A DNA stretch of 64,000 nt from Cenococcum geophilum (Eukaryota). The position numbers were made by a program, and so were the translations under genes. The notes under the pieces were generated by a model that was given only the letters and a program-made list of their open reading frames with translations, was not told the DNA's origin and did no database searches. Where the stretch lies: NCBI GenBank assembly GCA_050273025.1, contig CP158635.1:11036001-11100000 (forward strand), written 5' to 3'. The first letter of the stretch is position 1. Every line of letters starts with the position of its first letter. Shown one piece after another: positions 12,270 through 57,781 of this stretch.

Positions 12270-12828
12270 ATAGGTATAAAATAGTTAACAATATAAATAT
12301 AACTAGTGGAGTAGTTGCCTAATAGATTAACTCTAATTATATTCTAAGATTTACTAAAAAAAGAGAAGAACTATCTAGATAGGGACTATAGTCCTTTAAA
12401 TACATAACTATACTCCTAAGAAATCCTCCTTATAGGTAAAGTACGTCTTATATATAAGGTACGTAAGTTCCTCTTATTCCTTTTGTTTAATACGTAGCAT
12501 ATTATATAACCTTAGTTACCATTCCTCGTTATATAGTTCTATTAGCTCTGTTCTGGACCATGCCTTAATTAACTAACTAGCTGCTTCCAACTCCTCTCCT
12601 AGTAGTCGTAATATTGTACTTAAAGCGTCCGTAATAATAGACTTATATAAATATATAAAGATCTAGAATTAATAGTATATTACCATTTTGTTAAGGTACT
12701 AAGATCCTAAAGGCCTCCTAGTAGGATTTTAATTTTCTTAATTGTTTTAATAGCCTTAATAGGCTCCTAGCAGGCTTTTAGCAGGATTTTAATTTTCTAA
12801 TTATTCTAATCGTCCTAATTGTCCTAAT

Positions 12829-23584: not shown

Positions 23585-24251
23585 GTACGTAATTAATTAG
23601 TAAAAGGATAAATAGCGTATTACCTATAGATAGACGGTTAAATAAAAAAGATTAAATTAGATACTAGAGCAGTATTTAAGGTATTATATTAATTATATAT
23701 AGAATAATTAAGTATTATTATTACTAGTTATATAGTTTATATATAACGTAATACTACAGAAAGGTATAGAGATATTACCATTTTATGCGAATTATAGATA
23801 TAAGCTTAAAATATTATTATTACTAAAATAAGTAAAGAAAATAAGTAAAATAGCTAAGTAAAAAAATTAAGACTTTAATAAATCTTTATAAAGACCTTTA
23901 TTTTATAGTAAAGTTAATATTAAAAAAATAATAAAGTATTATAATACTAAGAGATTTAAGGGGTTAGATCTTAAGGAGGGGTATTATAAACGCTTTAAGT
24001 ACAATATTACAACTACTTAGAGAGGAGTTAGAAGAAGCTAGTTAATTAATTTAGGTACGGTCTAGAATGGAGCCGATAGAACTATATAACGAGGAATAGT
24101 AACTAAGGTTATATAACGTGATCTATATAATCTATAGGATCTATATAATCTATAATAGAGTAGATAAAGTATACGTACCTTACGTATAAAGGGGATTTCT
24201 TAGAAGTACGGTTGTGTATTTAAAGGACCATAGTCCCTACCTAGATAGTTC

Positions 24252-27200
24252 TGTCAGATAACTCATATAGAGCTATTCATTAATGAAATGGGTTAATTGA
24301 TTAATAATCTTAATCGTTTATTGACCTCGGGCCCCTAGGGCTCTATAAAGATATTAACGATGCACAACCCTATGCACGTGACTCGTGCACGTCCTATGCT
24401 ACCGAGAATATAGATTATCTAACAGCAATATCTGCAATATCTGCAATATCTGCAATATCTACAATATCTGCAATATCTGCAATATCTATAATATCTGCAA
24501 TATCTGCAATATTACAAATATCTAACATACCCCCTTAGCTTTAACCTGGTCGAGGACAAAGCTAGCCACCTTCTTGTGTCCGTCCATGCGTTAATTAAAC
24601 CGTAATCTTATCTAAATCCTTCCGTCTCGCCCTAATCTTCTCTCTTAGGTCTTCCAGTTGCTTCTCCTCATTTAGCCGCTCCTTAATATCTACTATTCTA
24701 ATTATATTAACAAAGCTCTTAAACCTCTGCTTAGGCAGGGCCTTCGTAAGTCCATCAGCGATTATCTCCTTTATCGCTTTTTATTATAATAGCACTTGTC
24801 TTATTACATATTCTTAACGCAACTAGTATTAATAGATGTTAACATATTAGAGCTCTGTGATTAGCTTTGCCGTATCTTTTATAATTAGTTAGAGTGTCTA
24901 GACGTTGTCGCAGTTAATAATTAAGGGCTTGTTTAGGTGTAATATTATTACTTTAAATAGCCTGCTAATAAAGATAGCTTCCTTTACTATCTGTAATAGG
25001 GCTAATAACTTAGCTTCTGTGCTTAACGTCGTAACAGTACCCTGCTTATTTGCTCTCCAGGCGATCGGTCCCCTAAATAGCTTTATAATATATCCTTATA
25101 AGCTCTTTCTGTCGACAGAGTTATCCGTAAATAATGCGTCACTAGCATAGATAAATAATTACGCTTTACTTCTACCGTCTCTTCCATCGTCTTGTCCTTT
25201 GTCATATATTCCTTTATCTCTCCCTCTACCGTTTATTCCTTCCTTGTCTCCTCTATAGTAGATTACTCTACTCCTCGTGCTATATAGGTACTGGAGTACT
25301 CTATCTACCGCTTAATAGTGCTTATAGCTTGGGTTCTAATTAAACCTTACCAGCCGTAATACTGTAAAAGCAATATCTAGACGCGTTATAGTGGCTATAT
25401 AGAGTACTAAACCCAGTTTTCTCTAATATAGCATTGTAGAAGCTAGTAGGGATATAGGACGGACTAATAGGTCTGTATTAGAGGACGGACGCGTTAGACG
25501 GATTATACGGTAATCGGTAGGGAGGAGTTCCAATTCTGCCATAGGAGTGTCTAAAAAACGCCCTCTAAAATCTATCTTATACTAATTAGCTATCTTCTTA
25601 ATATAGGCTTTCTAGGATAGCTATAAAAGCCTTTAGGTATAATTATATAGCACGTAGATTCCTAGGAACCATTTTAGCTCGCTAAGGGTACTTATCTAAT
25701 ATTCCTTACTTAGCTCCTTAATTACTTCTTAAGCTTTCTTCTTATCTATCTTTTAGTAGTAGAAGACAATATCATTAACATAGAAGAAGACAACTATTCT
25801 ACCTTTTAGCATGATATATGGCTCCTAGGGTACTTCTTTAAAACCCAATTCGTTTAATAAGCTTGTAAGATTCTTTTACTATAATAGTGGTAATTATTAT
25901 AGTCTGTATAGGGCTTTTCTTAAGCGCAGTACTTTGTCTATCTTTCTTTTATTAAACCCTAGCGGTAGCTTTATATAGATAACCTCGTTAAAATCGCAAT
26001 AGACAAACGCATTAACTGCATTTATCTATATCGTCTCTAGGTCGAATTTTATAGTAATCGCTATAAGGGTTTGGAAGGTCGTACTAGCTAATATAGTGGC
26101 TCTTATAGGTAGGTCTCCTAGGGCCTATTAATTTCCGTAAACTACTAAGCGTGCCTTATATTTCTAGAGAAATCCATACTTATCTATCTTGTAGACGAAT
26201 ACCTACATTAAGCTAAGGACCTACTATCCCTTTATATACTTCTTATCTGTTTCTTAAAACGACCTTATTTAATAATAAGATTGGAGATAGGCTCGTTAAG
26301 CCTCTTAGAACTAATCTTAAAGAGGATACGTATTAAGGTCCCAGATTAACTAGGGTGGCGAAGGTAGATTCTTCCTATATAATCTAACATCGCGTATTCT
26401 GCCTAATTTCAGCTTACTATCGTTAAGTTGATTATTAAGGTTAAACTTCTTTCCTACTAAGAAGGCGCCGTAATAGGCTAACGTAATCCTTTTAGTAATA
26501 AAGTCTTTAAACCTATTATCGCTAGCTTCCTTAAATAAGTCTTTAACTAAGTTATTAAACACCCCCTAAGTGTTAAACGCATCTCCTACTTAATAAGTAA
26601 TGTTTTAATTAGTACCTTATACATTTAACTTTATAGGATACTTAACATAAAAAGCATATAGAGATTCTTTATCTTCTTCTATTAGAGGTGGTGTATAGTA
26701 TATATCTTTAAGAGCTCTTGCAAGCTTAAGATCTGCTAACTTATTAAAGGCTTAAACTGGCTTATTAACGTCATTGTCTTCCTCTTAAATTAACGGTTTA
26801 AATACTTCTTTATTGTCTTCCAGAAGGACCTTGTTCTTAGTCTAGGTATTAAGTAGTTAAATCTTCTTAATTAGTGTATCTAATTTAGCGTATAGGTCCT
26901 CTAAGATATCCGTTTACTTACCGTTAAAGAATGTCTTTTTATTAAAGATGACATCCCTTATAGAGATGATAATACCCTTATATAGGATCTAGATCCTATA
27001 GATATTGGTAGAGTTATAGCCGACAAGATAGCTAATATAGGCTTGCAGATCTAGCTTGCTTAGCCTTTTCTTCCTTAGCTAGGCGTCTAATATCATTGCA
27101 TACGCCCTACAGCCGTAGGCTTTTAGGTGCGCTAGTTGCGGCTTTCTTAATCTCCTATTGGCTAGGAAGGTATAGAACCTCTTATATAGTAATATCCAAC

Positions 27201-29976
27201 CATTACTTTCCCGTGGCGTTTAATCTCAAAGGTAGACTATATAGTCGACTATCTCGTTCTATAGGTTATGTAGTAGATTAGCAGCAATTCTTATTACTTA
27301 TACTCTCTTAATAATTATACCCCCTAAGCGTTTGGCGGTACCGTTCTAAGCTTAGGTATATGGCGCTAAAGGCTTAAATATAATCCCTTAAGTCCGTAGC
27401 CATTTAAGGGTTCTCCTTTTCCCTAGCTCGTTGTCTAATCTAATAGTATTAACTTTAAGGTTATACCTTAGACGAATCTACTAGACGAAATCTTTAAGCA
27501 CCTATAGTGTCTCCTTCTTTTTACTATGCGTTATTATAAAGTACGGGAAGGATCTTCCTAAGTAGGTGTTGTATATAAGTATAACTTATATAAATCCGGT
27601 ATACGCTTCCTTAAGATTAGTCTAGTTAATATAGAGGTTAAGATAGGGTTTATTAATCTTTTATTTTAAAAACCTTCTTAAGACCTAACGCTTAATTTTA
27701 GCGAGACTGCAATGTTAACATTCTATTATCTTTAGGCCTTAAAGCTTAACTCCTAGGGCGTTAAGACCTAAATAATAAAGGCTTATAGGTCCTGGATAAC
27801 CTAGACGCAAATACTATAGACGTATATCTCCTTTTAAATCTAGATAAGCGTCTCTTAATAATGCTCTACGCTTCCGTTAGCATAGTAGTCAGCTTATATT
27901 AAACGCTAATAGACTTCCTAGTTAGACGTATTTAATAGTCTATTATCTATAACGTTCTTCCATTTAATATAGGACTAAGTTATCCTTTTAAACTAGAAGA
28001 TTGTTCTCTCCTTTATTGTCCTAGTAGTACCCTTATTTTTAAAGTAGATAGAATAACACTAGATTTATATTAAAGTCCGTATAAAAGGTAACGTCCTTAA
28101 GACGTAGGATTCCCTTACTCTTGTCTAGTTTTATAACTTAAATAGTAATATCGCCGTAGCCTAGTATAGGCACTTCTGAGCTGCCGGCGATAACGTATTT
28201 AAGTTTTAGAGCTTTCCTAAAGTTATAAAAATAAGAGAGGTTATTAAAGATATAGAGAGTGGTTCCTAAGTTAAGAATAGTTAATAGCTTTAGTGGATGG
28301 ATTTAACCTGTGTAATACGATTCTAGGAATATCATATTAGCTTCTCCCTTAATCTTAACTTTCTAACTCTTGTCCTATTGTTATTAAGCCTTATCTTCCT
28401 ATTCTTTAAGTCTAATCTTCGCAACTTAGTTAGCGAGATTCTTATTCTTTTCTACTTTCTTTAGTGCCCTATTAATGCGCGTATTTCTTATTATAACTCC
28501 TATAGGTTTTTTATCTTTAAATAAACACTAATAGTCCTATAGGGAGTATCCTTATATTCCGCACGCTAAGCACTTAGGCGTTAGCTTCTTATAGGACGTC
28601 TCCTTATCTACTAGTGTCCCGGCTCTCTTTAAGCGTCTATTATATACTAAGGCTCTTCCTCTTTATAAACCTTTAGTAGTATTAGAGTGATCCTTAATAG
28701 CTTGCTCTGCGAAGTCTATATTAAAGGTACTCCCTCTTATAGTAGTATTGGCTTTCTTTAAGGGTATTCTAAGTCCTTCTTATAGCTCCTTTACTACTCT
28801 ACGGTATTTAGAAGATCTTAACTTCTGCGGGTTATTTAACTTGGTAGTGTACTTTATATAGTTGGCGTTGCTAAAAGGTTAAATAACTTCTGCTAAATCT
28901 TAAAGCTAGATTCCATCGGATATTTAAGGGATCTTATACTTCTCTCCTAGTACTATTTCGTGTTCCCATTAATTTAGCCACTAATTTAATTTTAATAAGT
29001 ATTTAAACCCCTTAAGGGCTTCTGTATACTAGTGTTGTACCTTCTTCCTAACGAATAATAAGGTAGGTTCTGTGTTCTCCTTTAATTAGGATAGCTATTC
29101 TTTAACTATTAAGGAAGGGTTAAGCAGTAGCTTCTTCTAAATTAATACTGTGGTCGTAATCTAGGTGCGTATCTATTATAGATGCTCTTCCTATCTTAGG
29201 AAGTACTTTATGTCCTAGTCATAGTATCGTCTGCTATTCTTATACGCTTTCTGTTAATTTGACGAGAGCTATATATATAAGGTTGCATTCTTATTAAAAT
29301 CTATAACCTTTAGATAAGGTGGTTTTTCAAGTAGACCTTCTTAAGGTGCTTTTATAGCTAGGTTAACGTGGGCCCAAATTTACTAATCCACGAGGGCTCG
29401 GAGTTGCCAGATCCATTGCTCCCAGTCTTCTGGCTTATTAAGGATGATTGTGGTAGACGAACTTGACGTCGGTGGAGTTATTTAACTAATAGGCAGATGG
29501 GAATTGAGATGGAATTCGTCGTCAGGATCGTCCTTGTCGCAGGATCGTCCTTGTCATCAGGATCGTCCTTGTCGTCAGGATCGTCCTTTGACGATTAAGG
29601 TGGAGTCTCGTGGAATCTCGTGGAATCTCGTGGAATCTCGTCCTGTGACAATTGAGGTAGGATTTCGATCAGGGTCGTCTTATGACGATGAGGTGTTAGA
29701 GTCTGACGATGAGGTAGAATTTCTTTAAATAATTAAGTAATAGCTGAATAGCTTCTTGTGTCGGCGGACTGGGCTTATAACTATCAGATAACTCATATAG
29801 AGCTATTCATTGATGAAATGGGTTAATTGATTGATAATCTTAATCGTTTATTAACCTCGGGCCCCTAGGGCTCTATGAAGATATTAACGATACACGACCC
29901 CGTGCACGTGACTCGTGCACGTCCTACGCCACCGAGAATACAGATTATCTGACTGCAATATTGCAAATATCTGACA
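24252..29976 (-). mobile_element. Ty1/Copia element I (gag-PR-IN-RT-RH), inserted in the 5' LTR of D
   Basis: LTRs at 24252-24527 and 29782-29976 (TGTCAGATA..TATCTGACA). TSD AGTTC at 24247-24251 and 29977-29981. Copia-type PBS GTTATAAGCCC (minus, 29771-29781). LRLGHPG ~27790-27812, FFYVDDIVF ~25762-25790. Confidence 0.95.
24425..24505. repeat. 9-bp tandem repeat (GCAATATCT)x9 within the 3' LTR of Copia I
   Basis: Counted directly; accounts for the 81-bp length difference between the two LTRs. Confidence 0.95.
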
Positions 29977-30377
29977 AGTTCTTTCTTTTGTAGTAAATCT
30001 TAGAATACAATTAGAGTTAATCTATTAGGCAACTACTTTACTAGTTATTATTACGTTATTAACTTCTTATTTACCTATATACCTAGCCTATTAATAAGTC
30101 TACCATAGTTCCTACTACAAGGCTTTGTTATACATTTACTACTAAAGTTACGGTATTAATAAAGTTAAACAATATGCCATTAAAAGCACTAGCTACGACG
30201 CCATTAACGGCGGTAACTACTTTAAGATTAGGTAATAACACTAGTATAGCAGATATTAACTTATAGTAACTAGTAACGGTTGGATAACTATAAGAAATAG
30301 TTAACTAACTAACAGAAAATAATATAATATTAAAAAATAAGATTAACGGGATTGGAGAAGCGAAGATTAAGCTACTA

Positions 30378-31448
30378 CAGCCGTTTCAATATTATCGGTA
30401 AAAATCGCCAAGCCGCACGACGCGCATCGCCCGCTCGATCAAAACAATATACCCCCTTATAGTCCCACCAATATAGCTCTATATTTTATAAATAGAGGCC
30501 TATTTTATAGCTTTATTCTAGGGCTATAAAATAAGCCCTTATTTATATAATTTAGGGCTATTTTGGTAGAGTTATTGGGGGTACTTATTTCTAGGAATGG
30601 AGGGGTCGGATTAGTCAGCGCAGAGCCTCAATTTAAGTTTTACAGCCACCCCCTATAGCCTTACTAATACAGCTCTATATTTAATAAATAAAGTCCTATT
30701 TTATAGCCCTAGAATAGAGCTATAAAATAAGCCTTTATTTATAAAATATAGAGCTATATTAGTGGAGCTAGAGGGGGTATAATGCCGTTTTGGACATATT
30801 GGTAAAAATCGCCAAGCCGCAGCAGCACATCACCTTCTTATTAAAACAATCCACCCCATATAATTCCACCAATATTAATCCAATTTATATATATAGGGGC
30901 CTATTTTATAGCCCTAGAATAGGGCTATAAAATAGGTCTTTATTTATTAAATATGGAGCTGTATTAGTAGGGCTATATAGGGTATACTGCTGTTTTAGAA
31001 AAATTAATAAAAATCACCGAGCCGCAACAGCACATTACCCCCATATAATTCCACCAATATTAATCCAATTTATATATATAGAGGCCCATATTATAGCTCT
31101 ATTCTAGGGCTATAAAATAGGACTTTATTTATTAAATATAGAGCTATATTAGTAGGGCTATAGGGGGTGCTTTGCAATGGCCGCAAAATCTAAATTGAGG
31201 CTCTGCGCTGACTAATCCGACCCCTCTATTCCTAGAAATAAGTACCCCCAATAACTCTACCAAAATAGCCCTAAATTATATAAATAAGGGCTTATTTTAT
31301 AGCCCTAGAATAAAGCTATAAAATAGGCCTCTATTTATAAAATATAGAGCTATATTGGTGGGACTATAAGGGGGTATATTGTTTTGATCGAGCGGGCGAT
31401 GCGCGTCGTGCGGCTTGGCGATTTTTACCGATAATATTGAAACGGCTG
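30378..31448. mobile_element. Non-coding foldback-type DNA transposon (1071 bp, TA TSD) in the gag of D
   Basis: 258-bp near-perfect TIRs at 30378-30635 and 31191-31448, starting CAGCCGTTTC. TA at 30376-77 and 31449-50. Removing it restores the gag frame. Confidence 0.92.
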
Positions 31449-34400
31449 TATTAATTGAAAGGTACTTAGGGGAAAGATTAAAACTTAAAGGATTCCTTAT
31501 ATAAATGCACTTTAAAGTTATATAAGAAGGGGCAAAGCTACTAATACCTATAGATTGAATAGCGTATGCGGGACTATTCCTATTAAAAAGGGCACTTAAA
31601 TAGTTTAAACCTTACCTTATAGAAATATAAGCGAATAGTATAATAACTACTAATTAAGAAGTACGGTTTATATTTATAAGCTAGAAAGGGTTTATAGAAT
31701 AATTAATATAGATATTTAGAGACCTAGAGGCAGTAACCATAGCGGAAAGAAAACTCTAAAACATTATATAATAAACCTTAGTAATTAAGTATATAACACA
31801 GTTCCAGACGTTAGTAATATAAGTAAAGTGGAATAATAAGGCGCTTATGGCATAATATAAGCAAGGACTTAAGGCTAAAGTCTAGAATGTAATTATCCTA
31901 ATAGAAAATATAGATACCCTAAGGGAACTAATAGATTAAGTAATTAAGATTAATAATTAGATCTACTAAAGGGAACAGGCTAAGAGAGGCTAGAATAGAG
32001 TTTTATAGTCGTATAAGGCGCAGAGTACGCAATAACTAAAGCTAAGTTAAAAAATTATGGTATAGTGTAGAGCTAATAGACCTAAGTGGTACTGAAGAAT
32101 TTAAGAAGTAAAATAAGAAATTATAGAAACCCAGAGGATAAAGATTAAGTAATTAAAGGTTTAAAGAGCAGAGGCTAAACTAGGGATCTTAGTAGCAGAA
32201 AACGTTTAGGCGGATTCTATAGTAAGAAAAATGGTTTAAAGAGGGAGCTTATATAAATTGCGGAAAATAGGGTTATTATATTAGAGATTATAGAAGTGGT
32301 TAAAGTTACTATATAGTAAAAGGAATAAGACTAGTAGATAATATATACGTATAAAGGGACAATAATATACTGCGAGGAATAAAAGAATGTTTAATTAAAA
32401 GTTTTGCGTTTTGTTACAATAACATATACTAAATTTATAAGGATGCTAAGTATGGCGCAAGCTATTAGCTATAGGAGCTAGCACCTATAAAATATAGAGG
32501 AACTAACGAACTAGTTTACAGATTGGATATTAAGGATAATAAATTTAATATAGGCGAAACATTTTATAACGATAAGGCGATAAAGTCCGCTTACTAGGAG
32601 CGAGTAGACCTTAGAAATATTATACTAGAGGTAGAGGATAATTCTACTACAGAATAGGGAATATTAGTAGGGATTAAAACCCTACTAGACACAATGTCTA
32701 TTGCTTCGCGAGATGTAAGAGAAGTAGGACAGCGAGCTACTTCGGCACTCAATAAAGGCAAAAGGCTAAAAGCTTAAGATTCTTAAAACGAGATATAAAA
32801 CGACTAAGATTCTTAAGACGAGATAAGGTAAGCTTAAGGACCTATAATAGACGATAACCGATAAAGCAGAGCAATGGCTTAGTTTAGTAATATATAAATA
32901 AGCTTAGGATAAAGTTTCCTAAAGGTATAAGATTCTTAAGACAAGATAAGTAAGATTTAAGACTCTTAAGATAAGATAAGAATACTAATAAAGCCTAGTT
33001 GGACTAAAGCTAGAGTAAGGCTTAAGATAGAAGTAAGCTTAGGATTAAGAATCTAAAGGGGTTAGGAATTCGGAGTATAAATAAAAACACCTATAACTAA
33101 GAGGTAAGAGGCTTCTTTACAGATTAGAGAATCTATAGTATAAATAGTAACTAGATTAGGAGATAGGTATATAGACCTAGAAGACTTACTAGGAGAATAT
33201 AGTATTTAGCCTAAAGATTAAAACGTTAATACTAAGATTAAGAAGTAAGAAGACTTTAAGGATCTATCTACGAGATATAAACCAAAAGAAACTATAGAAG
33301 AATTTAGACGAAGAATTATTGCATAGTAGGAATAGAAACTAGATAAGAGATCTAGTATATTAGGACGTATAAGGGACAGAGCGCTAGTATAAAGAATTAC
33401 TAATAGGCTTAGGGCAGGCACATTAAGAGCTAAGTAGCTTACCGAATTGGAAGACAAAGAGGATTTAGGGATCCCTACTAGGTTTAAGGAACAATATATA
33501 AAAAGCTATTACAACGTAGTAATAAGAAGATACTTCCTTACGGACAAGCCGTATATACTCTAGTAGCTATACTAAAAGTAGTATAGACAACGATATAACA
33601 ATAAGTAGGAAGATTTCTATATATAGTTAGATAAAAGAGTTATCTAAAACCACCTAATTATAGAGAAGGCTATAACTTATATTAAAGGAGCCTTAATTAT
33701 AACGTTAAAGGATCTAAAGGAACGATTAGAGGACTAAAGAAGTAAAAGACGCATTTTAGTACCTGCGAATAAAGTTATAACGTTTAGATTAGTATAATAA
33801 AGGTTTAAACTTAAAGATAAAGACAAGTTAAGAGTTAACCTAAAGCACCTAGTATACTATACGCTATTATAAATTATATATATAGATAATATATACGAAA
33901 TATATAATAATTTAAAAAAAAATTGAAAATACCTTATAAGGATATATTAGATAATAGATAAATAATAATATAGGAATGCTAAGTATATATATAAATGGCA
34001 TCTAGTAAAAGCCTAAGAGGAAGGGGATTTAATACTTTAGCTAGGAAGATTCCTTATGGAAAAATACTTAGATAAATAATAGTAGTAAGAATACCTAGAG
34101 AATATATATCTATAATATATTAAAGATAAAAAGCAAATTAGGTATTGGCTAAAGAGTAAGCTAAGTATAATAGGATTAAGTAGCTAATAGTTAGGAAAAG
34201 TAAAGGCCTATAGAACTAAAGGGAGCTAGTAGTAGAGCCTTAAACCCTTAAAGGAATTTAAGGATAACACCTAAATCTATAAGTTAAATAATAAGATTAG
34301 CAGTTTAAAGCGCTAATAGATAGTAGAGTAACGCGGAACTATATCTTACTAATAGTAGTTAAGAGAATAGAATTACCTTATAGATAGAAGAAATAACCTT

Positions 34401-37400
34401 ACCTATTAGTTATAATTTTAGGAGATCTAATAGCCTATAGAGGAGGGATTATTAATCTTAAAACAGGACCTATTTAGATAACTATTAAAGGAAGATAAAT
34501 TAAGATGTTTTTTAATATCCTACTATTAGGACGGGATAAGGTAGTATTAGGCATGCCTTAGTTACAGGAATATAATCTAAAAATCAATTAAATTACAGGT
34601 TAGGTTAATATTAGAAATACTTAATACTATAAGATGCGATAGCAAACTAAGTTAGTATAGTACTAAGTTAGAGTAATATATAAAGAGACTAAGCGAGGCT
34701 TAAGTTATATACTAAAGAGATACTATAAGTATGGTAAGAAACTATAGAGCCTAAAAAGTAAAAAGCTAGTAGATTATGCAGCATAGGACTATAAAATAGA
34801 GTTAGAACTAGAAATAAATCTAAGGTTCTTTCTAACCTATAAGCTTACTTAAGAGGAGGCAAGCGTACTTAAAAAGTTTATCTAGGAAAACTTATAAAAA
34901 GGATACATTAGACTATCACAGTTATTGGTAGGTTATTTAGTACTATTCGTACTAAAGAAAAATAAAAAGCTTAGGTTATGCATTAACTATAAGCAGTTAA
35001 ATAGCATTACTTAAAAGGATAGGTATCCTTTACCCTTAATTAGCAAAATCTAAGATTAGATAAGTAACGCGTAAATCTTTATAAAGATAGATTTAAGATA
35101 GGCGTACCATCAGATTAGAATTAAGGAAGGCAATAAATAAAAGGCAGCTTTTAGGTTAAGAGAAGGACTATATAAACTATTAGTTATATAATTTAGATTA
35201 ATAAATATACTAGTAACGTTTTAGAAACGAATTAATAGTATATTAGGAGAACATCTTAATAAGTTTATTATAGCATACCTTAACGATATTATTATTTACT
35301 TAATAACTAAGGAAAAATATAGAGAACACGTTAAATGGGTTTTAAAAAGACTATAAGAAGAATAGATGCTAGTAGTAATTAAGAAATGCGAGTTCTTTAT
35401 AAGGAAGACTAATTTTATTAAATTTATTATTAAACTAGGTTATATTAGTATAAACCTAAAGAAAATTAAAGCTATAGTAAGTTGGCAAGAACTAGAGAAT
35501 GTAATATAGTTAAGGTTATTTTTAGGGTTTTGCAACTACTATAAAAGGTTTATAGTATAGTAGTTAAAGAATATTAAACCATTTACTAGGCTTATAAAGA
35601 AAGAGAAACTATAGGCATAGGGAGACGAATAAAAGAAGTTATTTAAAGAACTTAAGGAATTGTTTACCTAGGAGCTAATCCTTAAAATCTATTAACTAGG
35701 GTTAGACACGGTTGTAGAAACAGATGTATTAGACTACGCACTAGGAGTATATTTACTATAGAAGTATAAGGACGCATAGCATCCAGTAGCATATTATAGT
35801 AGAAAGATAACACTACTAGAGTTAAATTACGACGTCTATAACAAGGAGTTATTAGGTATAATTATAGTACTTAAGAAATAGAGAGCATTCTTATAAGGCG
35901 TAGAAAAACTATTTATAGTTAAAACAGATTATAAAAACCTAACGGGGTTCCTAACGATAAAAGAACTTAACTAAAGATAAGTTAGACAGGCAGAGATGCT
36001 TATAGAATACTATTTTAAAATTTAGTATACTAAGGGAACTAAGAATATAAGAGTAGATGCACTTAGTAAAAGAGCTAAACTATAAAATAGCGAGAAACTA
36101 TTAGGAGCAATGCTACGCAGAGATAAGGATAGATTAATTAGATATAATCACCCTAAACTAGTAGTAACTTAAGAGGATAATAAACTAGGAAGAGTCTATA
36201 AAACACCAGAAAGCTTTTAAATATAGAAAATTCTAAAAGTATAGCTAGAAGATCTATAGACGGATATATATAAGAATTAAGAAGTAAAGTATATCCTAAG
36301 AAGCATAGTAGAGTATTTTATAAAAGATTTTTATAAGGGAATAACTTAAGGACATAATGGAGCAATAGGCTTAGTATTAAGACTTTAAGAAGAATACATT
36401 ATTAATAGAATCTGGAATATTATAAGGAAAGTAATAAAGGAATATCTAAACTGTTAAAGAAATAAACTAACGAGGTATAAGCTATATAGAGGGCTATAAC
36501 CTATTAAAATACCAGAGAGACTATAGGAGGTTATATTATAGGACTTTATTATTAAGTTACTAAAGTTAAGAGATCCTATTACCAGATAAGATTATAACGT
36601 AATCTTAGTAATAGTGGATAAGCTTATAAAGTGGGGATATTTTATAGTATGCATAAAAGAAATCTTAGCGGAGGATATCGCTAAAATCTATATTAAAGAA
36701 GTGTTCGCAAGATATAGAGTACTAAGTAAAATTATATTGGATAGAGATTTAAGATTTATAGTAGTATTCTAGGAGGTATTCTTAGCGGAGTAGGGAGTTA
36801 GAGTAGTAACTTTTACCGTATATTATTCGCAGATAGACGGTTAAATAGAAAGATTAAATTAGATGCTAGAATAGTATCTAAGATATTATATTAATTATAT
36901 ACAGAATAATTAGGTATCGTTATTACTAGTTATATAGTTTATATATAATATAACACTATAAAAAGAAATAGGTACATTACTATTTAAGGCAAACTATAGA
37001 TATAAGCTAAGAATATTGTTATTACTAAGGCAAGTAAAGAAGACAAGTAATATAGTAAAAGAAAGAATAAAGATATTAATAAATCTTTATATAAACCTTA
37101 TAGAATTAGTAAAGAAAGTATAAAAGAGAATAAAAAAGTACTATAATGCTAAGAGATCTAAGGGACTATATTTTAAGGAGGGAGATAAATTATAGCTACT
37201 ATATAAAAATTTTAAGAGTTAACGACTAAGTAAGAAGTTAGACTACGTTAGACTAGGACCTTTTAAAATTATTTAAAGGATTTTACTAGTTACGTTTAAG
37301 CTAAACCTACCAGCTAGAATAAAGATCTACCCTATATAGCATATTATAATACTAGAGCTAGTATATAGGAATATTAAGCCACTAGGCTATAAAGCAGACA

Positions 37401-37508
37401 TATATAGAGGATAGGAAGAAGATAAATGGTAAGTTTTAAAGATCGTTAGTTATAAGGACATTAACGATAAAATATAGTATAAGGTTAAGTAGATAGGCTA
37501 TACTAAGA

Positions 37509-38215
37509 CTACCTAGGAACCACTAAAAATTTTAAAAAAACGCTATAGGAAAGGTACAGGAGTATTAAAAGAGATTAGGTTAGGCAGTATTAATAAAAAA
37601 GGATTACTAAAAAATAAATTACCTAAGGAGGACCTAAGAAGAGCAGTTACTAAACTACTTAAATCTATTTCCTTCTTAAATAGAGGAAAATCCGTTCTTT
37701 TGTCACTAAGTTCCTATAAACCTTATTCTATAAGTTTCTACTTCTTAAAACAGACCTTCTTACAAACCTTCTTAAGATAGATTAACTGAGTGGACGCCGC
37801 AAAATAAGACTTAAGGGCCCGTTACTAAGCATTGGCAGCCTCTTATTTAGTATTATAAGAACAACACAGTTCTACTAGGGTAACTAATAGTTTATTATCT
37901 AGCCGAGCAGCAGTAGATTAAACATAAAACCCTAAGATAAATTAATTAAGGAACTAGACAACTATTAAGAGTAATAGGTTGCGTATATTTAGTATTAGAG
38001 ATAAAGCAAACGTTATAGGACGAACGAATATTCGCTTTAGTGCACTCTAAGTAAGAGGACGGTTATTGTGAAGATAGACTCGCTAATATAATATAAACTA
38101 ACCCCTCTTTTAAACAATAAGAACATAGAGACGGTATAATCTCACCTAGAGATAATATTGCAGTAATAGTGTAAGTATAATAAGCGGTTAAGGAAGTAGA
38201 AGAAGCTTTAGGTAT
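37509..38215 (-). pseudogene. Antisense Zn2Cys6-like/coiled-coil gene, copy in D
   Basis: Homologous to 4776-5460. Cys1 and Cys2 (TGT) and Cys5 (TGC) are intact. Intron acceptor TCTTAG|GG intact at ~37930. Confidence 0.7.
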
Positions 38216-39059
38216 AATAAGTAACAATATTAACCAAATTAATTAGATGGATATTATACCTCTAGTAAACGACTTAGAGATATTTAGAATCTTTAAGGAT
38301 AAAGATAAAAAGGAGGGAGATAGTGTTACGGACGCTTTAAGTACAATATTATAACTACTTAGAAAGGAGTTAGAAGAAGCTAGTTAGTTAATTTAGGCAT
38401 AGTCTAAAATAGAGCTAATAGAACTATATAATAAGGAATAGTAACTAAGGTTATATAACGTAATCTATATAATCTATAGGATCTATATAATCTATAATAG
38501 AGTAGATAAAATATATATACCTTGTGTATAAAGGGGATTTCTTAAGAGTATAGTTGTATATTTAAAGGACCATAGTCCCTACCTAGATAGTTCTCTCCTT
38601 TATAGTAAATCTTAGAATATAATTAGAGTTAATCTATTAGGCAACCACTCCACTAGTTATTATTACGTTGTTAACTTCTTATTTACCTATATACCTAGCC
38701 CATTAACAAGTCCACCGTAGTTCTTACTATAAGGCTTCGTTATAAGGGGGATAAAGTATAGCTATTATATAAAAAAATTTACAAGTTAATAACTAAGTAA
38801 AAAGTTAGATTATATTAGACTAGGACTATTTAAAATTATAGCTAAGATTTTAAAAGTTATATATAGACTTAACTTACTAGTAAATATAAAGATCTACTCT
38901 ATATAGTATATTATAATACTAAAGCTAGCATATAAAGATATAGAGCTATTAGTTTATAAAGTAGATATATATAAAGAATAAGAGAAAGATAAATAGTAAG
39001 TTTTAAGGATATTAATAATAGAATATAATATAAAGTAAAGTAGATAGGCTATAATAAGA

Positions 39060-39752
39060 CTACCTAAAAACTACTATAGAATTTAGAAAAAGCTATTAAA
39101 AAGGTATAAAAGTATTAGAAGAGAATAGGTTAAGTAATATTAAAAAGGAGCTAGAGATAAAAGGATTAGTTAAAGGTAATAAATAAGCTAGATTATCTAA
39201 AGGATCTACTACTAGCGTATAAACTTTTTCCGCCTTTTCTAAATTAGAATTCTTTTTAGCTTCCTTAGCCTTAAGCTTATAAAGACCTTACTCTATAAAA
39301 TATAACTCTTTTAAATAAACCTTCTTATAACCCTTTATAAGACGGCTTAGTTAAGTATAAATATCTATTTAAGCTTTTAGAGCCTAAGACGCCTTATTAA
39401 AATAACGCTAAACCTTAGTAAAGGCCTTAGCTAGCTTACCCTCTAGTCTTTTGGCCGCTACTAATATATAAAACCCTAAAATAAATTAGATAAAGTATTA
39501 AAGAATTATAAAGAATTATAAAACGTATATACTTAGCGTTAGAGATAGATTAAATATTATAGGATAACTATATATTTGCTTATATATACTTAGTATAAAA
39601 AAAGGTTAGTAATTAGATAGAGCTATAATTATAGTATATACTAACCTTTTCTTTATATAATAAGAATAGAATAATATAACTTTACTAAGTAATAAAATAA
39701 ATATTACTAGCTAGTTATAATAATTAAATATAGAAGATTTAATAAAAGGTAT
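39060..39752 (-). pseudogene. Antisense Zn2Cys6-like gene, diverged copy in H
   Basis: Same Cys spacing after de-RIP and same intron position (TTTTAG|GG at ~39475). Boundaries approximate. Confidence 0.55.
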
Positions 39753-40280
39753 TAGGAATAATAAAGGTTATTAAAATAAAAATAAAAATACTATACCTTT
39801 AATAGATAACTTAAAAATAAGAGATATCTTTAAGAATAAAAATAAAGATAAAGGGGATAGTATTACGGACCTTATATTAGCAGTAGTAGAACTACAAAAA
39901 GAGATATAAATAGGTTAGTTAAAATAGTATAAAAGGCACTAGAGTTAATTAAGATATAAAATAAGGGGTAGCTAAGTTATATAGTTAGTTATATTATAAG
40001 TTTAGAATATAGAAATATAGAAATATAGGAATATAATATACTAACGTACTAACGTACTAATATACTTGGTATATTTCTTAGACGCAGTATTATATATTTA
40101 AAGAACTATATTCTTTGCCTAAATAGTTCTCTTCTTTATAGTAAATCTTAGAATATAATTAGAGTTAATCTATTAGGCAACCTACTCTACTAGTTATATT
40201 TACTTATTTAACTATTCTATACCTATATACCTAGCCTATTAATAAGCCTAATATAGTATTTCCTATAAGGCTTTATTATA

Positions 40281-50547: not shown

Positions 50548-51923
50548 CAAGGGGGCCTCATGAGCGGGCTGCTCGCCCTCCCTGCTAGCGCTGGCGTGGC
50601 TTTAGCTATATGCAGCGTATGAATAATCCACAGAAGCCACCAGAATACACCAGACTAGCTAGATAACATATAAAACAACGGCAGGGGGGCCTTGTATCTT
50701 GTATCATAAAAATGCCGAATCTTGTACGCCGGTAGCGAGGCCACCATCCACCAAAAATCCAATACCCAATTCTTCGAGATCTAGGCACCCGTCTCTCTTA
50801 CCGTGAGCGTAATATTGCTTATTCCCTCTCTCAATACGCTAGTTGGAATCACCACAGGATTGGTGCCTCCCTTGGTATACCTTATAGAACTATATTAAAT
50901 TCTCTCCAGAATCCATAGACCCCTTAAAAGCAGAGGGGAAGGAAGCCGAATATTGATACCCTAGCACGACAGCGTCTAATTGCACGAGCGAAGCAGGACC
51001 GTTGGCACCGACAGAAATCCTTCGAGGAGATTGCATTTCTTGAAGGAATCTCTGCCTGCAAGCGATCTTTATATAAGGCCTTTGAAAAGGAGGGCTACTT
51101 CCGCCGCGTTGCAACAGAGAAGCCCCTTATTACGCCTAAACAACGAGAGGCCCGTCTTAAATGGGCCTATTCTCATCTAGAATGGACTCCCGAGATATGG
51201 GCAGCAGTAATTTGGACAGGTGAAGCGTCCGTTCGAACTGGTGGAGGCCAGATTTTTGTTACTAGAAGCGCCGAGGAGAAATACAATATTAATTGCTGTG
51301 TCCCCAAATTTAGGGGGTATTTAAGCTGGATAATCCACGGTAGTATTTCCCATGGGAATAAAGGACCTCTAGTTGTTTTTGAGAAGGACTAGTTAATTAA
51401 GCTGGGATACAAGAAAAAGACAATAAATGGCGACGTCTACTGTACCTATATATGCCCCAAAATTAAGACTTTTGCATGGGAATTATGGCAGACACTATAA
51501 CACCAGCCTATTCTTGTGGAGGATAATGCCTTAATTTACTCAGCAAAAGTAACGCGCCTTGGCTGGGAACAGAACGGCATGCTAGTAATGGAATGGCCAG
51601 CGAATTCCCCTGATTTGAATCCAATTGAGAACGTCTGGAGGCTATTAAAGGGGAGGATACAACGCCGGTTCCCTAAAACAAATGAGGAAGTACGGTAGTA
51701 CGCTAAGGAGGAATGGGAGAAGCTCGAACCTGAAGAATTTGAAAAGTATACAGGCAATATGAGGGAGCGCTGCTTGGCTGTAATTGCTGCAGATGGCGGC
51801 CCAACGAAATATTAGTTATTGGTTACTGAATAAGCACTGTTTTCATGTGGCGATGTGGCAATTGTAAGCACTAATGGAGGCGCTAGCAGGGAGGGCGAGC
51901 AGCCCGCTCATGAGGCCCCCTTG
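50548..51923 (+). mobile_element. Tc1-family (DD34E) transposon, 1376 bp
   Basis: Perfect 44-bp TIRs at 50548-50591 and 51880-51923. TA TSD at 50546-47 and 51924-25. Confidence 0.96.
50712..51815 (+). pseudogene. Tc1 transposase (367 codons) with about six premature stops
   Basis: One frame, including supplied ORF 51516-51698: EDNA..WPANSPDLNPIENVW (34 residues between D and E), ending DGGPTKY*. Confidence 0.93.
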
Positions 51924-54852
51924 TAGTATGTCCACGGTTCGATTTGTATGGCTAAATCAGCCACTAAGTCACGATTTGGCAGGCAGGAGGCCCGTGCGCT
52001 TAGCGGTATATAGATATTACCCCATGTCCACAGTCGATCTATAATTACTAGTAACGCCGCGCTCTTAACACCTATTAAGTGCTATGCGTAGAGCCGGCTA
52101 AGAGCTCTCTGCTCGCATTAGAATGGTAAGAATTAGCCGTAGGTTAATAGAGATATTTACGTTTTAGATTAGGCGCTGCTATTATATAAGTACTTTATTA
52201 AACTTATACTGCACTAAAATAAGCCCCTAAGGGGCTATAGATAAAGGCTTTAAGAGGACTCCTTAGAAGTTAGATATATATACTATTTTAAAGCTTTTTT
52301 ACCCGCTTAAAGCCGTTTATAAAGCTAATCTAGCGAGCACTATATCCGCTCCTGCTATTAATTAACCTACTATATAGCCGCTTCCTTACTAACCCTTTAG
52401 GCCTACGCAACCTACTTAATCTCCTTAATAACCTTAAGCTGTAGGGAGTACTATTGGAGCTTATTCTACTGGCTAGCCCGCTATTTACTGCCCTATTTAG
52501 AATCTAGCGCTACTATAGAAGGATTACCTCTAAGCCCTTTAGTCCACTCGCGCTAAAGGGCCCGTATAGACTTTACTGTATAGTATATATAATATGCTAG
52601 CGACTACTTAGGCGGCTGCTTGGGCTTAGGCCCTTACTACAGCTATAGCTATAGCTATAGCTATAGCGGCGCTAGCGAAGGGGAAGCTACAGCGCTTACC
52701 TAGGCCGATATATTCTAGTTTAATTCCGCGACAAATAGAGGCGCTAGTGGATATACCATTAGTAGACGTACCGTTAGGAGGTATGTTATTAAACGTAAAT
52801 ATATAGATGCTAAAGGGACCTTAAGCTAAAAGGTAAGGCTACCGGACGTAAGCAATTAAAGCTGCAAAGACTGCGCCTACTAGGACTCGGCTATACGGTT
52901 AAATAACGCCTATAGCTCGCGTATTTAGGCGTCTATAGTCTTTAGGCGGTTCGCGATAGCTAGTACAGCCTAGTAGAGTATTAATAGCTAGCTAGGGCCT
53001 TTTTCCTCCTACTATAGGCAGGCTTCGACCTTCTGCGCGAAGGGTAGATAGGCCTTATACTAGAAGACCAGGTGGTTTTATATAGGGCTACTTAGGAACA
53101 TCTTGCGAAGGACTACTAAGTCCTATAGGATAACCTCCTAGAGATAAAATAGGAGGTTTATAGCGCCTATAGCCGCGAGGTTATTAACCTAGCTAACCTA
53201 AGGGCTAAACTGGCCCTTCTAGATATCCAGCTCTGGCTAGATCGTCGACAGTAGTACATTAAGGGGGGCGACGCTTGCCCTGTAAATCTTAAAGCAGCCT
53301 ATCTATAGTAAATGGCCAGCTATTGTCCGTATAAACTCCCGCGGTAGTAAATTTAAGTAATAGCTAACTATTTACTTCTGGTTTTACCTACTAGCGCGTT
53401 TAATCTAGTCCTCGCTAACCCCTTTTAGCTCCGCTATTTTAGCGCTAGCGCTTTGCCTATTATAGGTCTTTTTCTATAAAAAGATGCCGATGGCCTAGAA
53501 TGCCTTAGCAATTTACTCCCGCTATAAGTTATATAAGAAGGCCGTCTTATAGTCCCTAGCGCTGCTTTTAATTAGGCGGATATTATACCACACTAACCGC
53601 TTGCTAAAGTTTAGAAATAGCTTATTATTAAGGTCCTAGTGGTATAAGAGGTAGAAAGCTAGCCCGCTAAGTATATAGATAAGCGGCTTCTTATTATATA
53701 GAGCTCTAATAGTCTTAAGGCGGCTATACTGGTTCTACTTACTGGCGCGTATAGTAAATATTAGGGGCATATAGCGCGTAGGACCTTTCCCCTTAAACTT
53801 AAAGGTAAATAGGTCTAAGATCTCGGCGGAGCGCCTATTGCTGCCGTAGGTAAGTATATAGTGGCCTAGTAGGATATCTATAAGCGTATGGAGGTAGTAT
53901 TTTGGTAAGGAGTCTCCGCGGGCCTATAGCTTATAGTAGACGCTCTTAAACTCGTCCTCTATATATCCGTTAAGTAGTATATTCCTACCCTTATTTATAA
54001 ACTACTTCTTTTCCTACTGCGCGTCCCTCTATTATAAAACCTTTAGGTAATCCCTAATATTATCCTCCTGTAGGAACTAGTGGCTATTTATCCCTATATC
54101 CTTTTACGTTCGGTAAAGGTCCGTTAGGGTAGTAATATAGCCGCGAACTAAGCGCTAGGAGAGCCGCGTCTCGTCCTAAGGTACGTTATTACTAGCCTTA
54201 CGGCTTTTTACTTTTAGTAGCTGGCCTATAACCTTCTTAATAAGGAAAAGAAGTAGCTTCTCTTCTATAATGGTATTGCTATTATAGTACTACTTCCGCT
54301 TATAAAAGGCCTAGAAAGACGCGCGTTAGTTATAAGTATATTACTTTATAAAGCACCTACCTATTTACCTTAAACTCTTTCTACTTCGGCTTATAATTTA
54401 AAGATATATTTTTAGGTCTCTTAAAACGCGTAAGGGTAAGGATACTCTGCGCATTAGCGCGTAGTTTGGCATTATTTACAACGTTAATCTTTACGCAACT
54501 AATTAATAGCATTTTTAAGATATATAGGACGCTGCTAGAGAAGCTATACCCTAAGGGGGGATTCCTATTTTCCTATATACGTAGATATAAACTAGGGAGG
54601 AAAGGTAGAGAGAGCATACCTACTAGATAAGTAATTTTACTATATAGGGTAAATAAACGGGCGTATGGCTGGGCCAATAGGCTAATAGTACGCGCGCATT
54701 AGCAACTTAATTAGTAGGGGTAAAGACATTTAAAGATATCCACGGCTTAGTTATAGGCTTAGCCATAGACATCCGCGAATATTAATAGGGGTTATATATA
54801 TTATATACGGCTTAGTAACTAATCGGGCGCTTAGCTAAGCCGTAAATACCAA
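51924..54852 (-). mobile_element. Crypton (tyrosine recombinase) element, copy 1 (2929 bp)
   Basis: Direct repeat of 54853-57781. Bounded by AATAYCAA direct repeats; its left end is interrupted by Tc1. Confidence 0.88.
52283..54512 (-). pseudogene. Crypton YR/NDC10-II-like protein with C-terminal GCR1_C-like domain, copy 1
   Basis: Same motifs as copy 2; intron at 54311-54368. Confidence 0.82.
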
Positions 54853-57781
54853 TAGTATATCCACGGTTTGATTTATATAGCTAAATTAGCCGCTAAGTCA
54901 CGATTTGGCAGGCAGGAGGCCCGTGCGCTCAGTGGCATATAAATATTACCCTATATTTACGGTTAATCTATAATTACTAGTAACGCCGCGCTCTTAATAC
55001 CTATTAAGCGCTATACGTAGAGCCGGCCAAGAGCTCTTTGCTCGTACTAGAATGGTAAAAATTGGCTATAAGTTAATAGAAATATTTATGTTTTAGATTA
55101 GGCGCTACTATTATATAAGTACCCTACTAAACTTATACCGCACTAAAATAAGCCCCTAAGGGGCTATAGATAAAGGCTTTAAAAGGACTCCTTAGAAGTT
55201 AGATATATATACTATTTTAAAGCTTTTCTATTTACTTAAAGCCGTTTATAAAGCTAATCTAGTAAACACTATATCTGCTTCTGCTGTTAATTAACCTACT
55301 ATATAGCCGCTTCCTTACTAACCCTTTAGGCCTACGCGACTTACCTAATCTCCTTAATAACCTTAAGCCGTAGGGAGTCCTATTAGAGCTCGTTCTACCG
55401 GCTAGCCCGCTATTTACTGCCCTATTTAGAATCTAGCGCTACTATAAAAGGATTACCTCTAAGCCCTTTAATCTACTCGCGCCAAAGGGCCCGTATAAAC
55501 TTTACTATATAGTATATATAATATATAGGCGGCTACTTAGGCGGCTGCTCGGGCTTAGGCCCTTACTGCGGCTATAGCTATAGCTATAGCTACGGCGGCG
55601 CTAGTAAAGGGGAAGCTATAGCGCTTACCTAGGCCGATATATCCTAGCTTAATTCCGTAATAAATAAAGGCGCTAGTAAACGTGCCGTTAGTAAACGTGC
55701 CGTTAGTAGGTATACTATTAGATATAAATATACAGATACTAAAGGGACCTTAAGCCGAAAGGTAAGGCTACTAAACGTAAGTAATTAAAGCTATAAAGAC
55801 TGCGCCTACTAGGACTTGGCTATACGGTTAAACGACACCTATAGCTCGCGTGCTTAGGCGTCTATAGTCTTTAGGCGGTTCGCAATAGCTAGTACAGCCT
55901 AGTAGAGTATTAATAGCTAGCTAGGGCCTTCTTCCTTCTATTATAAGTAGGCTTCAACCTTCTGTATAAAGGGTAGATAGGCCTTATACTAGAAGACCAG
56001 GTAGTTATATATAGGGCTGCTTAGAAATATTTCGCGAAGGACTATTAAGTCCTATAGGATAACCTCCTAGAGATAAAACAGAAGGTTTATAGCGCTTATA
56101 GCTATAAGGTCGTTAACCTAGCTAACCTAAGGGCTAAACTGGCCCTTTTAGACGTCTAGCTCTGGCTAGATTGTCAACAGTAGTATATTAGGAGGGGCGA
56201 CGCTTGCCCTATAAATCTTAAAGCAGCCTATCTGCGGCGAATAGCCGGCCATTATCCGTATAAACTCCTATAGTAGTAAGTTTAAGTAATAGCCGACCAT
56301 TTACTCCTAGTTTTACCTACTAACGTATCTAATCTAGTCCTTACTAACCCCTTTTAGCTCCGCTATCTTAGCGCTAGCGCTTCGCCTAATATAGGTCTTC
56401 TTCTGCGAAAAGACGCTAACAGCCTAGAATGCCTTAGTAACTTACTCCCACTACGAGTTATATAAGAAGGCCGTCTTATAGTCCCCAGCGCTGCTCTTAA
56501 TTAGGTGGATATTATACTATACTAACCGCTTACTAAAGTCTAGGAATAGCTCGTTGCTAAAGTTCTAGTAGTATAAGAGGTAGAAAGCTAGCCCGCTAAG
56601 TATATAAATAAGCGGCTTCTTATTATGTAGAGCTCTAATAGTTTTAAGGCGGCTATACTAGTTCTACTTACTGGCACGTATAGTAAATATTAGGGGCATA
56701 TAGCGCGTAGGACCTTTCCCCTTAAACTTAAAGGTAAATAGGTCTAAGATCTCGGCGGAGTACCTATTGCCGCTATAGGTAAGTATATAGTGGCCTAGTA
56801 GGATATCTATAAGCGTGCGGAGGTAGTATTTTAGTAAGGAGTTTTTATAGGCCTATAGCTTGCGGCAGACGCTCTTAAACTCGTCCTCTATATATCCGTC
56901 GAGTAGTATATCTCTACCCTTATTTATAAACTGCTTCTTTTTCTACTGCGCGTCCCTCCGTTATAGAACCTTTAAGTAATCCCTAATATTATCCTCCTAT
57001 AGGGACTAGTGGCTATTTATCTCTATACCCTTCTGCGTCCGGTAAAGGTCTATTAGGGTAGTAATATAGCTATAAACTAAGCACTAGGAGAGCCGCGTCT
57101 TGTCCTAGAGCACGTCGTCACTAGCCTTACGGCTTTTTACTTTTAGTAGCTGGCCTATAACCTCCTTAATAAGGAAAAGAAGTAGCTTCTTTTCCGTAAC
57201 GGTATTGCTGTTATAGTACTGCTTCCGCTTACAAAAGGCCTAGGAAGACGCGCGTTAGTTATAAGTATACTACTCCGTAAAGTACCTACCTACTTACCTT
57301 AAACTCTTTCTGCTTTGGCTTATAATTTAGAGACGTGTTTTTAGGTTTTTTGGAACGCGTAAGGGTAAGGATACTCTGCGTATTAGCGCGTAGTTCGGCA
57401 TTATTTATAACGTTAATCTTTACGCGACTAATTAACGGCATTTTTAAGATATGTAGGACGCTGCTAGAGAAGCTACACCCTAAGGGGGGATTCCTATTTT
57501 CCTATATACGCAGATATAGACTGGGGAAAAGAGGTAGAGAAAGCATACCTACCGGATAAGTAATCTTACCGCATAGGGTAAATAAACGGGCGCACGGCTG
57601 GGCCAATAGGCCAATAGTACGCGCGCATCAGCGACTTAATTAGTAGGGGTAAAGACATTTAAAGATGTCCACGGCTTAGCTATAGGCTCGACTATAGATA
57701 TCCGCGAATGTTAATGGGGGTTGTATATATTATATACGGCTCAGCGACTAATCGGGCGCTTAGCCGAGCCGTAAATACCAA
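54853..57781 (-). mobile_element. Crypton element, copy 2 (2929 bp)
   Basis: Head-to-tail with copy 1; same 2929-bp offset at every landmark checked. Confidence 0.88.
55212..57441 (-). pseudogene. Crypton YR/NDC10-II-like protein with GCR1_C-like domain, copy 2
   Basis: De-RIP RGGNRRSAEISDLF..GEGPTRCMPL..KQNQ; KTHIGR..DQIRRAGRW..GCYL (HxxR, W, Y); LWREWTEGL..LDSKWG. Intron 57240-57297 with GTAAGT..ACTAAC..TAG. In-frame upstream ATG at 57546. Confidence 0.82.

Follow-up and report, generated by a model that had tools for sequence, protein, structure and literature searches.

A spliced antisense gene with a predicted zinc-cluster-like product in a fungal chromovirus, probably exchanged together with U3

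The window and its antisense genes

The window, a stretch of 64,000 nucleotides of Cenococcum geophilum DNA (contig positions 11036001-11100000), is an AT-rich block of nested repeats in which only four frames of at least 100 codons are free of stops. Three of the elements that it holds, designated B, D and H, carry a gene on the strand opposite gag-pol, situated between the terminal chromodomain of pol and the PPT and 3' LTR; the end of this antisense gene overlaps the tail of pol. Its six cysteine sites are spaced C-x2-C-x6-C-x13-C-x2-C-x8-C. The features concerned, in positions of the window, are as follows.

23982-38744, plus strand: element D, a Ty3/Gypsy chromovirus with nested insertions
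23977-23981 and 38745-38749: target duplication of element D (5 bp, AGGGG)
38324-38744: 3' LTR of element D, with the PPT directly before it
37543-38215, minus strand: antisense gene in D, broken by RIP; start at 38215, stop at 37545-37543
38215-37987, minus strand: exon 1 in D
37986-37932, minus strand: intron in D, 55 nt, phase 1; donor lost, TAG acceptor kept
37931-37543, minus strand: exon 2 in D
38015-38125, minus strand: six cysteine sites in D, at 38125, 38116, 38095, 38053, 38044 and 38017
38216-38259, minus strand: start of a putative upstream intron, AG|GT, with the G at 38259 (4732 in B, 39796 in H)
38745-40280, plus strand: 3' part of element H, comprising the integrase end, chromodomain, antisense gene and LTR (39861-40280)
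about 23615-23981: upstream piece of element H, split off by the insertion of D
39093-39752, minus strand: antisense gene in H, broken by RIP; intron 39530-39476
4776-5427, plus strand: antisense gene in B, the element itself being on the minus strand; intron 5005-5059

The host element has the makings of a chromovirus: LTRs and a target duplication, a PPT, reverse transcriptase before integrase, and a chromodomain ending pol. Pfam recognizes RVT_1 (E 1.7e-15) and SH3_Tf2-1 (E 1.7e-7) in D; the chromodomain was recognized by eye in the translations and has no Pfam Chromo match at E≤0.01. D sits within the integrase of H, with AGGGG duplicated on both sides, and H is therefore the older of the two. 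The LTR pair of D differs by 41 transitions and no transversions across 419 sites. Divergence by transitions only is the signature of fungal RIP; transitions are thus uninformative, and all tests reported here were made on transversions. The element copies in the window were destroyed by RIP after inserting.

Some further features touch these elements. The 5' LTR of D is interrupted by an element of 5.7 kb (24251-29973) whose ends are short direct repeats (about 194 nt, 92%), degenerate tandem repeats of about 195 nt lie between that LTR and gag (30393-31381), and two more LTR copies of the B/D type stand head to tail inside another element (11847-12640).

Cysteine codons and splice sites across copies

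The genome was sampled by taking the best 30 matches each to D, B and H, 90 copies in all, window copies included; 80 metagenome loci were also available. An earlier reading of the window, made from the sequence only, had noted that D retains TGT at Cys1 and Cys2 (38125 and 38116) where B has TAT (4866 and 4875), that D keeps a TAG|GG acceptor (37934-37930) where B has TAA|GG (5057), and that H shares the spacing of the six sites and the position of the intron. All of this is correct: the six-site spacing in H is identical, and its 55-nt intron lies in the same place (39530-39476) and ends in TAG|GG. The sequence-only reading went on to take the TGT codons and TAG acceptor of D as a sign of conservation, and here the larger sample tells otherwise. 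Cys1 is TGT in eight of the 30 D-like copies as against 17 of the 30 B-like ones, the TAG acceptor is present in 25 of 30 copies in both groups alike, and the G+C content of the gene is 0.318 in D versus 0.361 in B. D is no better preserved than B, and its intact TGT codons and acceptor survived RIP after insertion by chance and are no sign of selection on D.

What is held across copies is the set of sites. Of the 540 codons that the 90 genome copies have there, 539 are TGY or TAY (133 are TGY), and in 64 metagenome loci the same is true of 384 of 384. D retains cysteine at sites 1, 2 and 5; H reads TAT at all six sites, leaving no cysteine, and none of the 30 H-like copies has TGY at Cys1, Cys3 or Cys4. 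In 89 of the 90 genome copies the intron measures 55 nt. A GT donor is absent from B, D and H; it is kept in three of the 90 genome copies and in 26 of the 80 metagenome loci.

Codon positions, intron and selection

To count as inherited, a transversion had to be common to at least two copies or fixed between groups. Over the stretch used for the codon test (exon 1 plus the beginning of exon 2), inherited transversions occupy 65 of 144 third-position columns versus 49 of 290 columns at positions 1 and 2 (P=9e-10). Among the metagenome loci, the 57 whose intron is 55 nt long, representing 50 distinct patterns, give 55/126 versus 40/252 (P=2e-8). Before the 55-nt intron the excess lies in phase 2 and after it in phase 0, and the family-level differences in exon length (-6, -21 and -6 nt) are all multiples of three. 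The last part of exon 2 has little codon-position bias.

It had been proposed that the interior of the intron is more diverged than the exons, and that conservation of exon over intron marks a gene under purifying selection. The first proposition fails. Between D and H the intron interior has an identity of 0.59 with 0.172 transversions, and exon 1 has 0.59 and 0.171; between D and B there are no transversions over 55 intron sites. Inherited transversions fall in seven of 55 intron columns in the genome copies and in nine of 55 in the metagenome loci, in both sets like positions 1 and 2 and below position 3 (for the genome copies 7/55 vs 49/290, P=0.55, and P=1e-5, respectively). A codon-position comparison thus delivers the predicted third-position excess, while the intron proves to be as conserved as positions 1 and 2. 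Splice signals together with a pyrimidine-rich interior (0.62-0.69) may be enough to account for the constraint on a 55-nt intron; the frame that reads through the intron has no phase pattern of coding (3, 3 and 3 columns). The main length classes of the intron, 55, 61, 127 and 130 nt, all leave a remainder of one on division by three (loci L091-L170).

The antisense gene is, we are confident, real, protein-coding and spliced. Purifying selection on it stands on the codon bias, the shift of phase, the in-frame length differences and the uninterrupted natural homologues described below; the exon-over-intron argument originally given for it does not. The alternative, that the frame arose by chance opposite the 3' untranslated region of a retrotransposon, would fit the absence of an open copy from the window, the missing GT donors of B, D and H and the fact that no RNA was seen. 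A chance frame is at odds with the codon pattern and with natural proteins spanning the junction, and is rejected by the codon-position tests; we give it almost no credence.

Natural relatives and RNA

A profile of 20 exon-1 copies retrieved 243 protein clusters at E≤0.001 and 22 longer proteins. Most of these relatives look decayed by RIP, and many begin at the same methionine. Two of them, P0174 (239 aa) and P0175 (152 aa), possess all six cysteines and run through SDAEWSRV directly into the helix of exon 2. The junction is the one predicted by a phase-1 T|GG splice; the contigs from which the two proteins derive are either RNA or intron-less DNA. P0174 matches exon 1 of D (E 1e-18), exon 2 of D (E 2e-8) and exon 2 of H (E 4e-13), and the likeness extends to the last residues before the stop. 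A further natural protein, P0088, joins exon 1 to exon 2 at another junction (AECTFHVRS), possibly by a deletion within the intron.

The N-terminus of P0174 matches the stretch at the LTR end and PPT and then jumps into exon 1. On the evidence of this one protein a second, upstream intron is possible, with its acceptor just past the start site; the upstream AG|GT is kept in 88 of the 90 copies.

With the junction fixed, the intron of the 80 metagenome loci is 55 nt long in 56, 61 nt in four, 127-131 nt in twelve and 54 nt in one, seven being unscorable; the loci, drawn from three assemblies, are not independent of one another. In 69 of the 70 loci with room, integrase or chromodomain sequence lies just downstream on the opposite strand.

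The RNA search gave, among the matches listed, small word shares only (0.04-0.05), in 20 of 24 runs. In four of four runs mapped to locus L050 at 80% likeness there was no RNA depth over the intron, and neither of the two RNA joints listed for that locus lay at the predicted splice sites. On L050 the contigs of three RNA-type runs accumulate at 2563-2739 only (LTR TATA-R-U5) and continue into unrelated sequence; they are perhaps LTR-driven transcripts of other loci, or library DNA.

The predicted product

The layout predicted for the product is a short basic arm, a Zn2Cys6-like cluster, a helix of 70 residues and an acidic low-complexity tail. P0175 and the B/D type (AKEGLV) have a weakly basic loop between Cys2 and Cys3, and in this loop Gal4 differs. 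The spacing x2, x6, x13, x2, x8 is present in P0174 and P0175 and also in P0019, P0042 and P0072 (three of 173 proteins). It agrees with the zinc-cluster signature CX2CX6CX5-16CX2CX6-8C as worded in a passage of PMC1183520; a passage of PMC11534201 gives the spacer as X5-24, and one of PMC5082525 gives a narrower form, X5-9, outside which x13 falls. According to the latter passage, a cluster followed by a coiled coil is the usual layout of dimeric zinc-cluster regulators, which bind CGG repeats (PMC5082525).

Domain searches place the cluster beneath the accepted threshold. Scores for Pfam Zn_clus (PF00172) lie below its gathering score of 21 bits (13.8 bits, 1/20; 13.6 bits for P0175, with two of 40 members matched), and neither P0174 nor any of 15 others matched it; a weak match to DUF3716 (E 0.018) came from one of 40 members. 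In the ESM Atlas, ascomycete proteins of 192-214 aa make up the nearest clusters, the top one (0.92, 204 aa, Ascomycota) carrying the automatic name Zn(2)-C6 fungal-type, which we treat as a lead. AlphaFold predicts a long helix with confidence (residues 77-144), and a cleaner alignment brings out short helices of modest confidence at 35-39 and 58-67; the cluster region attains a pLDDT of 44-75 only. Neither model had a Foldseek match at E≤0.001, VIA-align yielded nothing but generic coiled coils (Z≤7.0), the long helix having filled the fold searches, and sequence searches of the PDB gave nothing meaningful.

H as a probable mosaic

The sequence-only reading had treated H as an independently diverged element with a clearly different LTR. 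A comparison of the H family with D over ten longer stretches, each region being covered by three to ten of them, does not bear out independent divergence. Transversions amount to 1.1-2.6% in gag, PR, RT, RH, IN and TATA-R-U5, less than the 1.5-4.8% that separate B from D in gag-pol, so that H is nearer to D than B is in gag-pol and close to it in R-U5 also. In the antisense gene and U3 the values are 14.8% and 19.6%, respectively, in ten of ten stretches. For B versus D the gene stands at 4.4% against 1.5-3.6% in pol, and U3 at 10.3%. The difference in the LTR is confined accordingly: between the D and H groups transversions are 0.13-0.34 over 38326-38605 and fall to 0.03-0.05 over 38606-38744, and the LTR of H is thus clearly different in U3 and not beyond it. 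Within U3 a segment at 38466-38535 is hypervariable, with 0.30 transversions between D-like and B-like copies as against 0.01-0.045 elsewhere in the LTR.

The part in which H departs from D can be delimited.

37575-38570, in coordinates of D: putative exchanged cassette, comprising the gene, the PPT region and U3 as far as the TATA-like box at 38557

This is the only part where the H family differs strongly from D, and its borders are abrupt: differences start near 37575 and thin past 38551-38570, at the TATA-like box. At third positions H and D differ by 0.028 in pol versus 0.29-0.36 in the gene (71 of 90 loci cover the stretch of pol used as control). Purine/pyrimidine trees were built from 78 loci, L002, L073, L119, L151, L152 and L164 having been dropped from 84 as outliers or incomplete. 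Metagenome loci that are nearer to D than H is number 0 of 60 in the tree of pol and 60 of 60 in that of the gene. In an AU test, run with too few replicates, the pol and gene alignments each reject the other's tree.

These comparisons of sequence suggest that H very probably acquired its gene and U3 by exchange of a cassette between element lineages. The borders are what two template switches would leave, and we therefore infer that the exchange would have taken place by template switching in reverse transcription, with one switch at the R/TATA end and another in the tail of pol. Linkage alone accounts for the joint divergence of gene and U3.

Could H have reached the same state with no exchange, its gene and U3 evolving about ten times faster than pol on a single shared history? 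The gene does exceed pol in variability everywhere, B and D included (median pairwise transversions over 84 loci 0.107 in the gene versus 0.021 in pol), and no donor that combines the H cassette with another pol was found, the 12 mirror pairs all involving L002 or L073, whose pol is an outlier even against their own group. For both of these reasons faster evolution of the gene contributes too. As the whole explanation it is improbable, given the gulf between third positions in gene and pol, the order of relatives that flips between the two trees and the abruptness of the change at about 37575 and at 38551-38570.

Proposed function and its alternatives

The overall account that we favor, with some reserve, is of a real antisense gene, carried in an exchanged cassette and encoding a Gal4-like regulator of the element. 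By analogy with zinc-cluster regulators the product may be a dimeric DNA-binding protein acting on the element's own LTR, although we advance this part tentatively. Transcription of the gene would start at an antisense promoter within the 3' LTR, and the intron would survive retrotransposition because the packaged sense RNA would contain no intron in splice orientation. Tallies of CGG and CCG in U3 differ between groups, define no binding site and are blurred by RIP. A bolder extension, which we consider rather unlikely as a whole, is that ascomycete chromoviruses of one widespread lineage encode an antisense Gal4-type factor of their own, and that factor and cognate U3 enhancer form one cassette, shuffled by reverse transcription onto near-identical gag-pol bodies. 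Subfamilies would thereby gain private regulator-promoter pairs, comparable to the accessory regulators of complex retroviruses.

Two other functions deserve consideration. The protein could be an accessory factor with no part in transcription: a coiled-coil adaptor with bound zinc for the RNA or integration complex (in nuclear import or export, or particle assembly), or an agent of anti-silencing. A cluster scoring under the Pfam threshold, with a weakly basic loop from Cys2 to Cys3, would suit such a factor, the far faster divergence of the gene than of pol (0.107 vs 0.021) is expected of one that faces the host, and nuclear and integration-complex roles have been suggested for plant antisense ORFs in a passage of a review (PMC7264820). 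Against this, the six sites and their spacing are held in all copies examined, and the order of cluster and then coiled coil is usual for zinc-cluster regulators in the passage concerned (PMC5082525). We think an adaptor unlikely overall, while still a serious contender to the Gal4-like regulator. It is also conceivable that the active part is the antisense RNA, pairing with genomic RNA to damp the element, and that the protein is secondary. The unexpected conservation of the intron and upstream stretch suggests constraint at the level of RNA, the gene end overlaps the pol tail, and silencing by dsRNA has been raised for such transcripts, again in a passage of PMC7264820; however, the bias at third positions, the indels that keep the frame and the fixity of all six cysteine sites demand selection on a protein, which makes this proposal very improbable.

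Relation to known antisense genes

The closest known counterpart is brtn, reportedly described by Zhao in 2011 (said to be Virology 417:248). The gene is reported to be spliced, alternatively spliced and driven by the 3' LTR. Like the gene described here, brtn is an extra antisense gene in the same position and type of element, the two being compared by position alone. Passages in several sources place brtn between pol and the 3' LTR of Boty elements, which are fungal chromodomain Gypsy elements of Botrytis and Sclerotinia (PMC7264820, PMC4227169, PMC5987419, bioRxiv 2021.04.13.439636). The citing passages mention neither a zinc cluster nor an exchange of gene and U3, and a further difference is that the copies in the window are dead through RIP. 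Neither brtn nor Boty is named among the protein-search matches, and brtn did not occur in the supplementary files searched.

Plant Grande, RIRE2, Retand and PvRetro13 likewise have an antisense ORF that lies between pol and the 3' LTR and is conserved across copies, as stated in a passage of PMC7264820; these are plant elements, and the word "zinc" is absent from the main text of that review. To Gal4-type Zn(II)2Cys6 proteins (PF00172) the likeness is of another kind, namely six cysteines near the N-terminus, spaced x2, x6, x13, x2, x8 and followed by a long helix. In contrast to them, the product here has about 200 residues, lacks the regulatory middle domain, scores under the Pfam cut-off and is encoded by a retrotransposon; it is known here from sequence alone. 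No description of a zinc-cluster antisense gene was found in the open literature, the portions of PMC3248453 and PMC10799480 consulted having no matching passage; subscription papers or preprint supplements may describe one. The arrangement is thus known from brtn, and the zinc-cluster-like product is apparently undescribed. What the window adds is the probable exchange of a gene-plus-U3 cassette in H and an intron that has not diverged beyond the exons.

A passage of PMC7264820 calls it an open question what antisense 3' ORFs do in LTR retrotransposons. A zinc-cluster-like protein beside its candidate target, intact natural homologues and probably exchanged pairs of gene and U3 would render the question testable. 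Some of the small "Zn2Cys6" genes in fungal annotations would, moreover, be retrotransposon cargo.

Other features of the window

Elsewhere in the window a tandem duplication of 2.9 kb, 89% identical, occupies 51924-57781. Close to it, on the plus strand at 50928-51392, an open frame of 154 codons contains a transposase domain of the Tc1/mariner type (HTH_Tnp_Tc3_2, E 2.9e-8), in a stretch that is less AT-rich.
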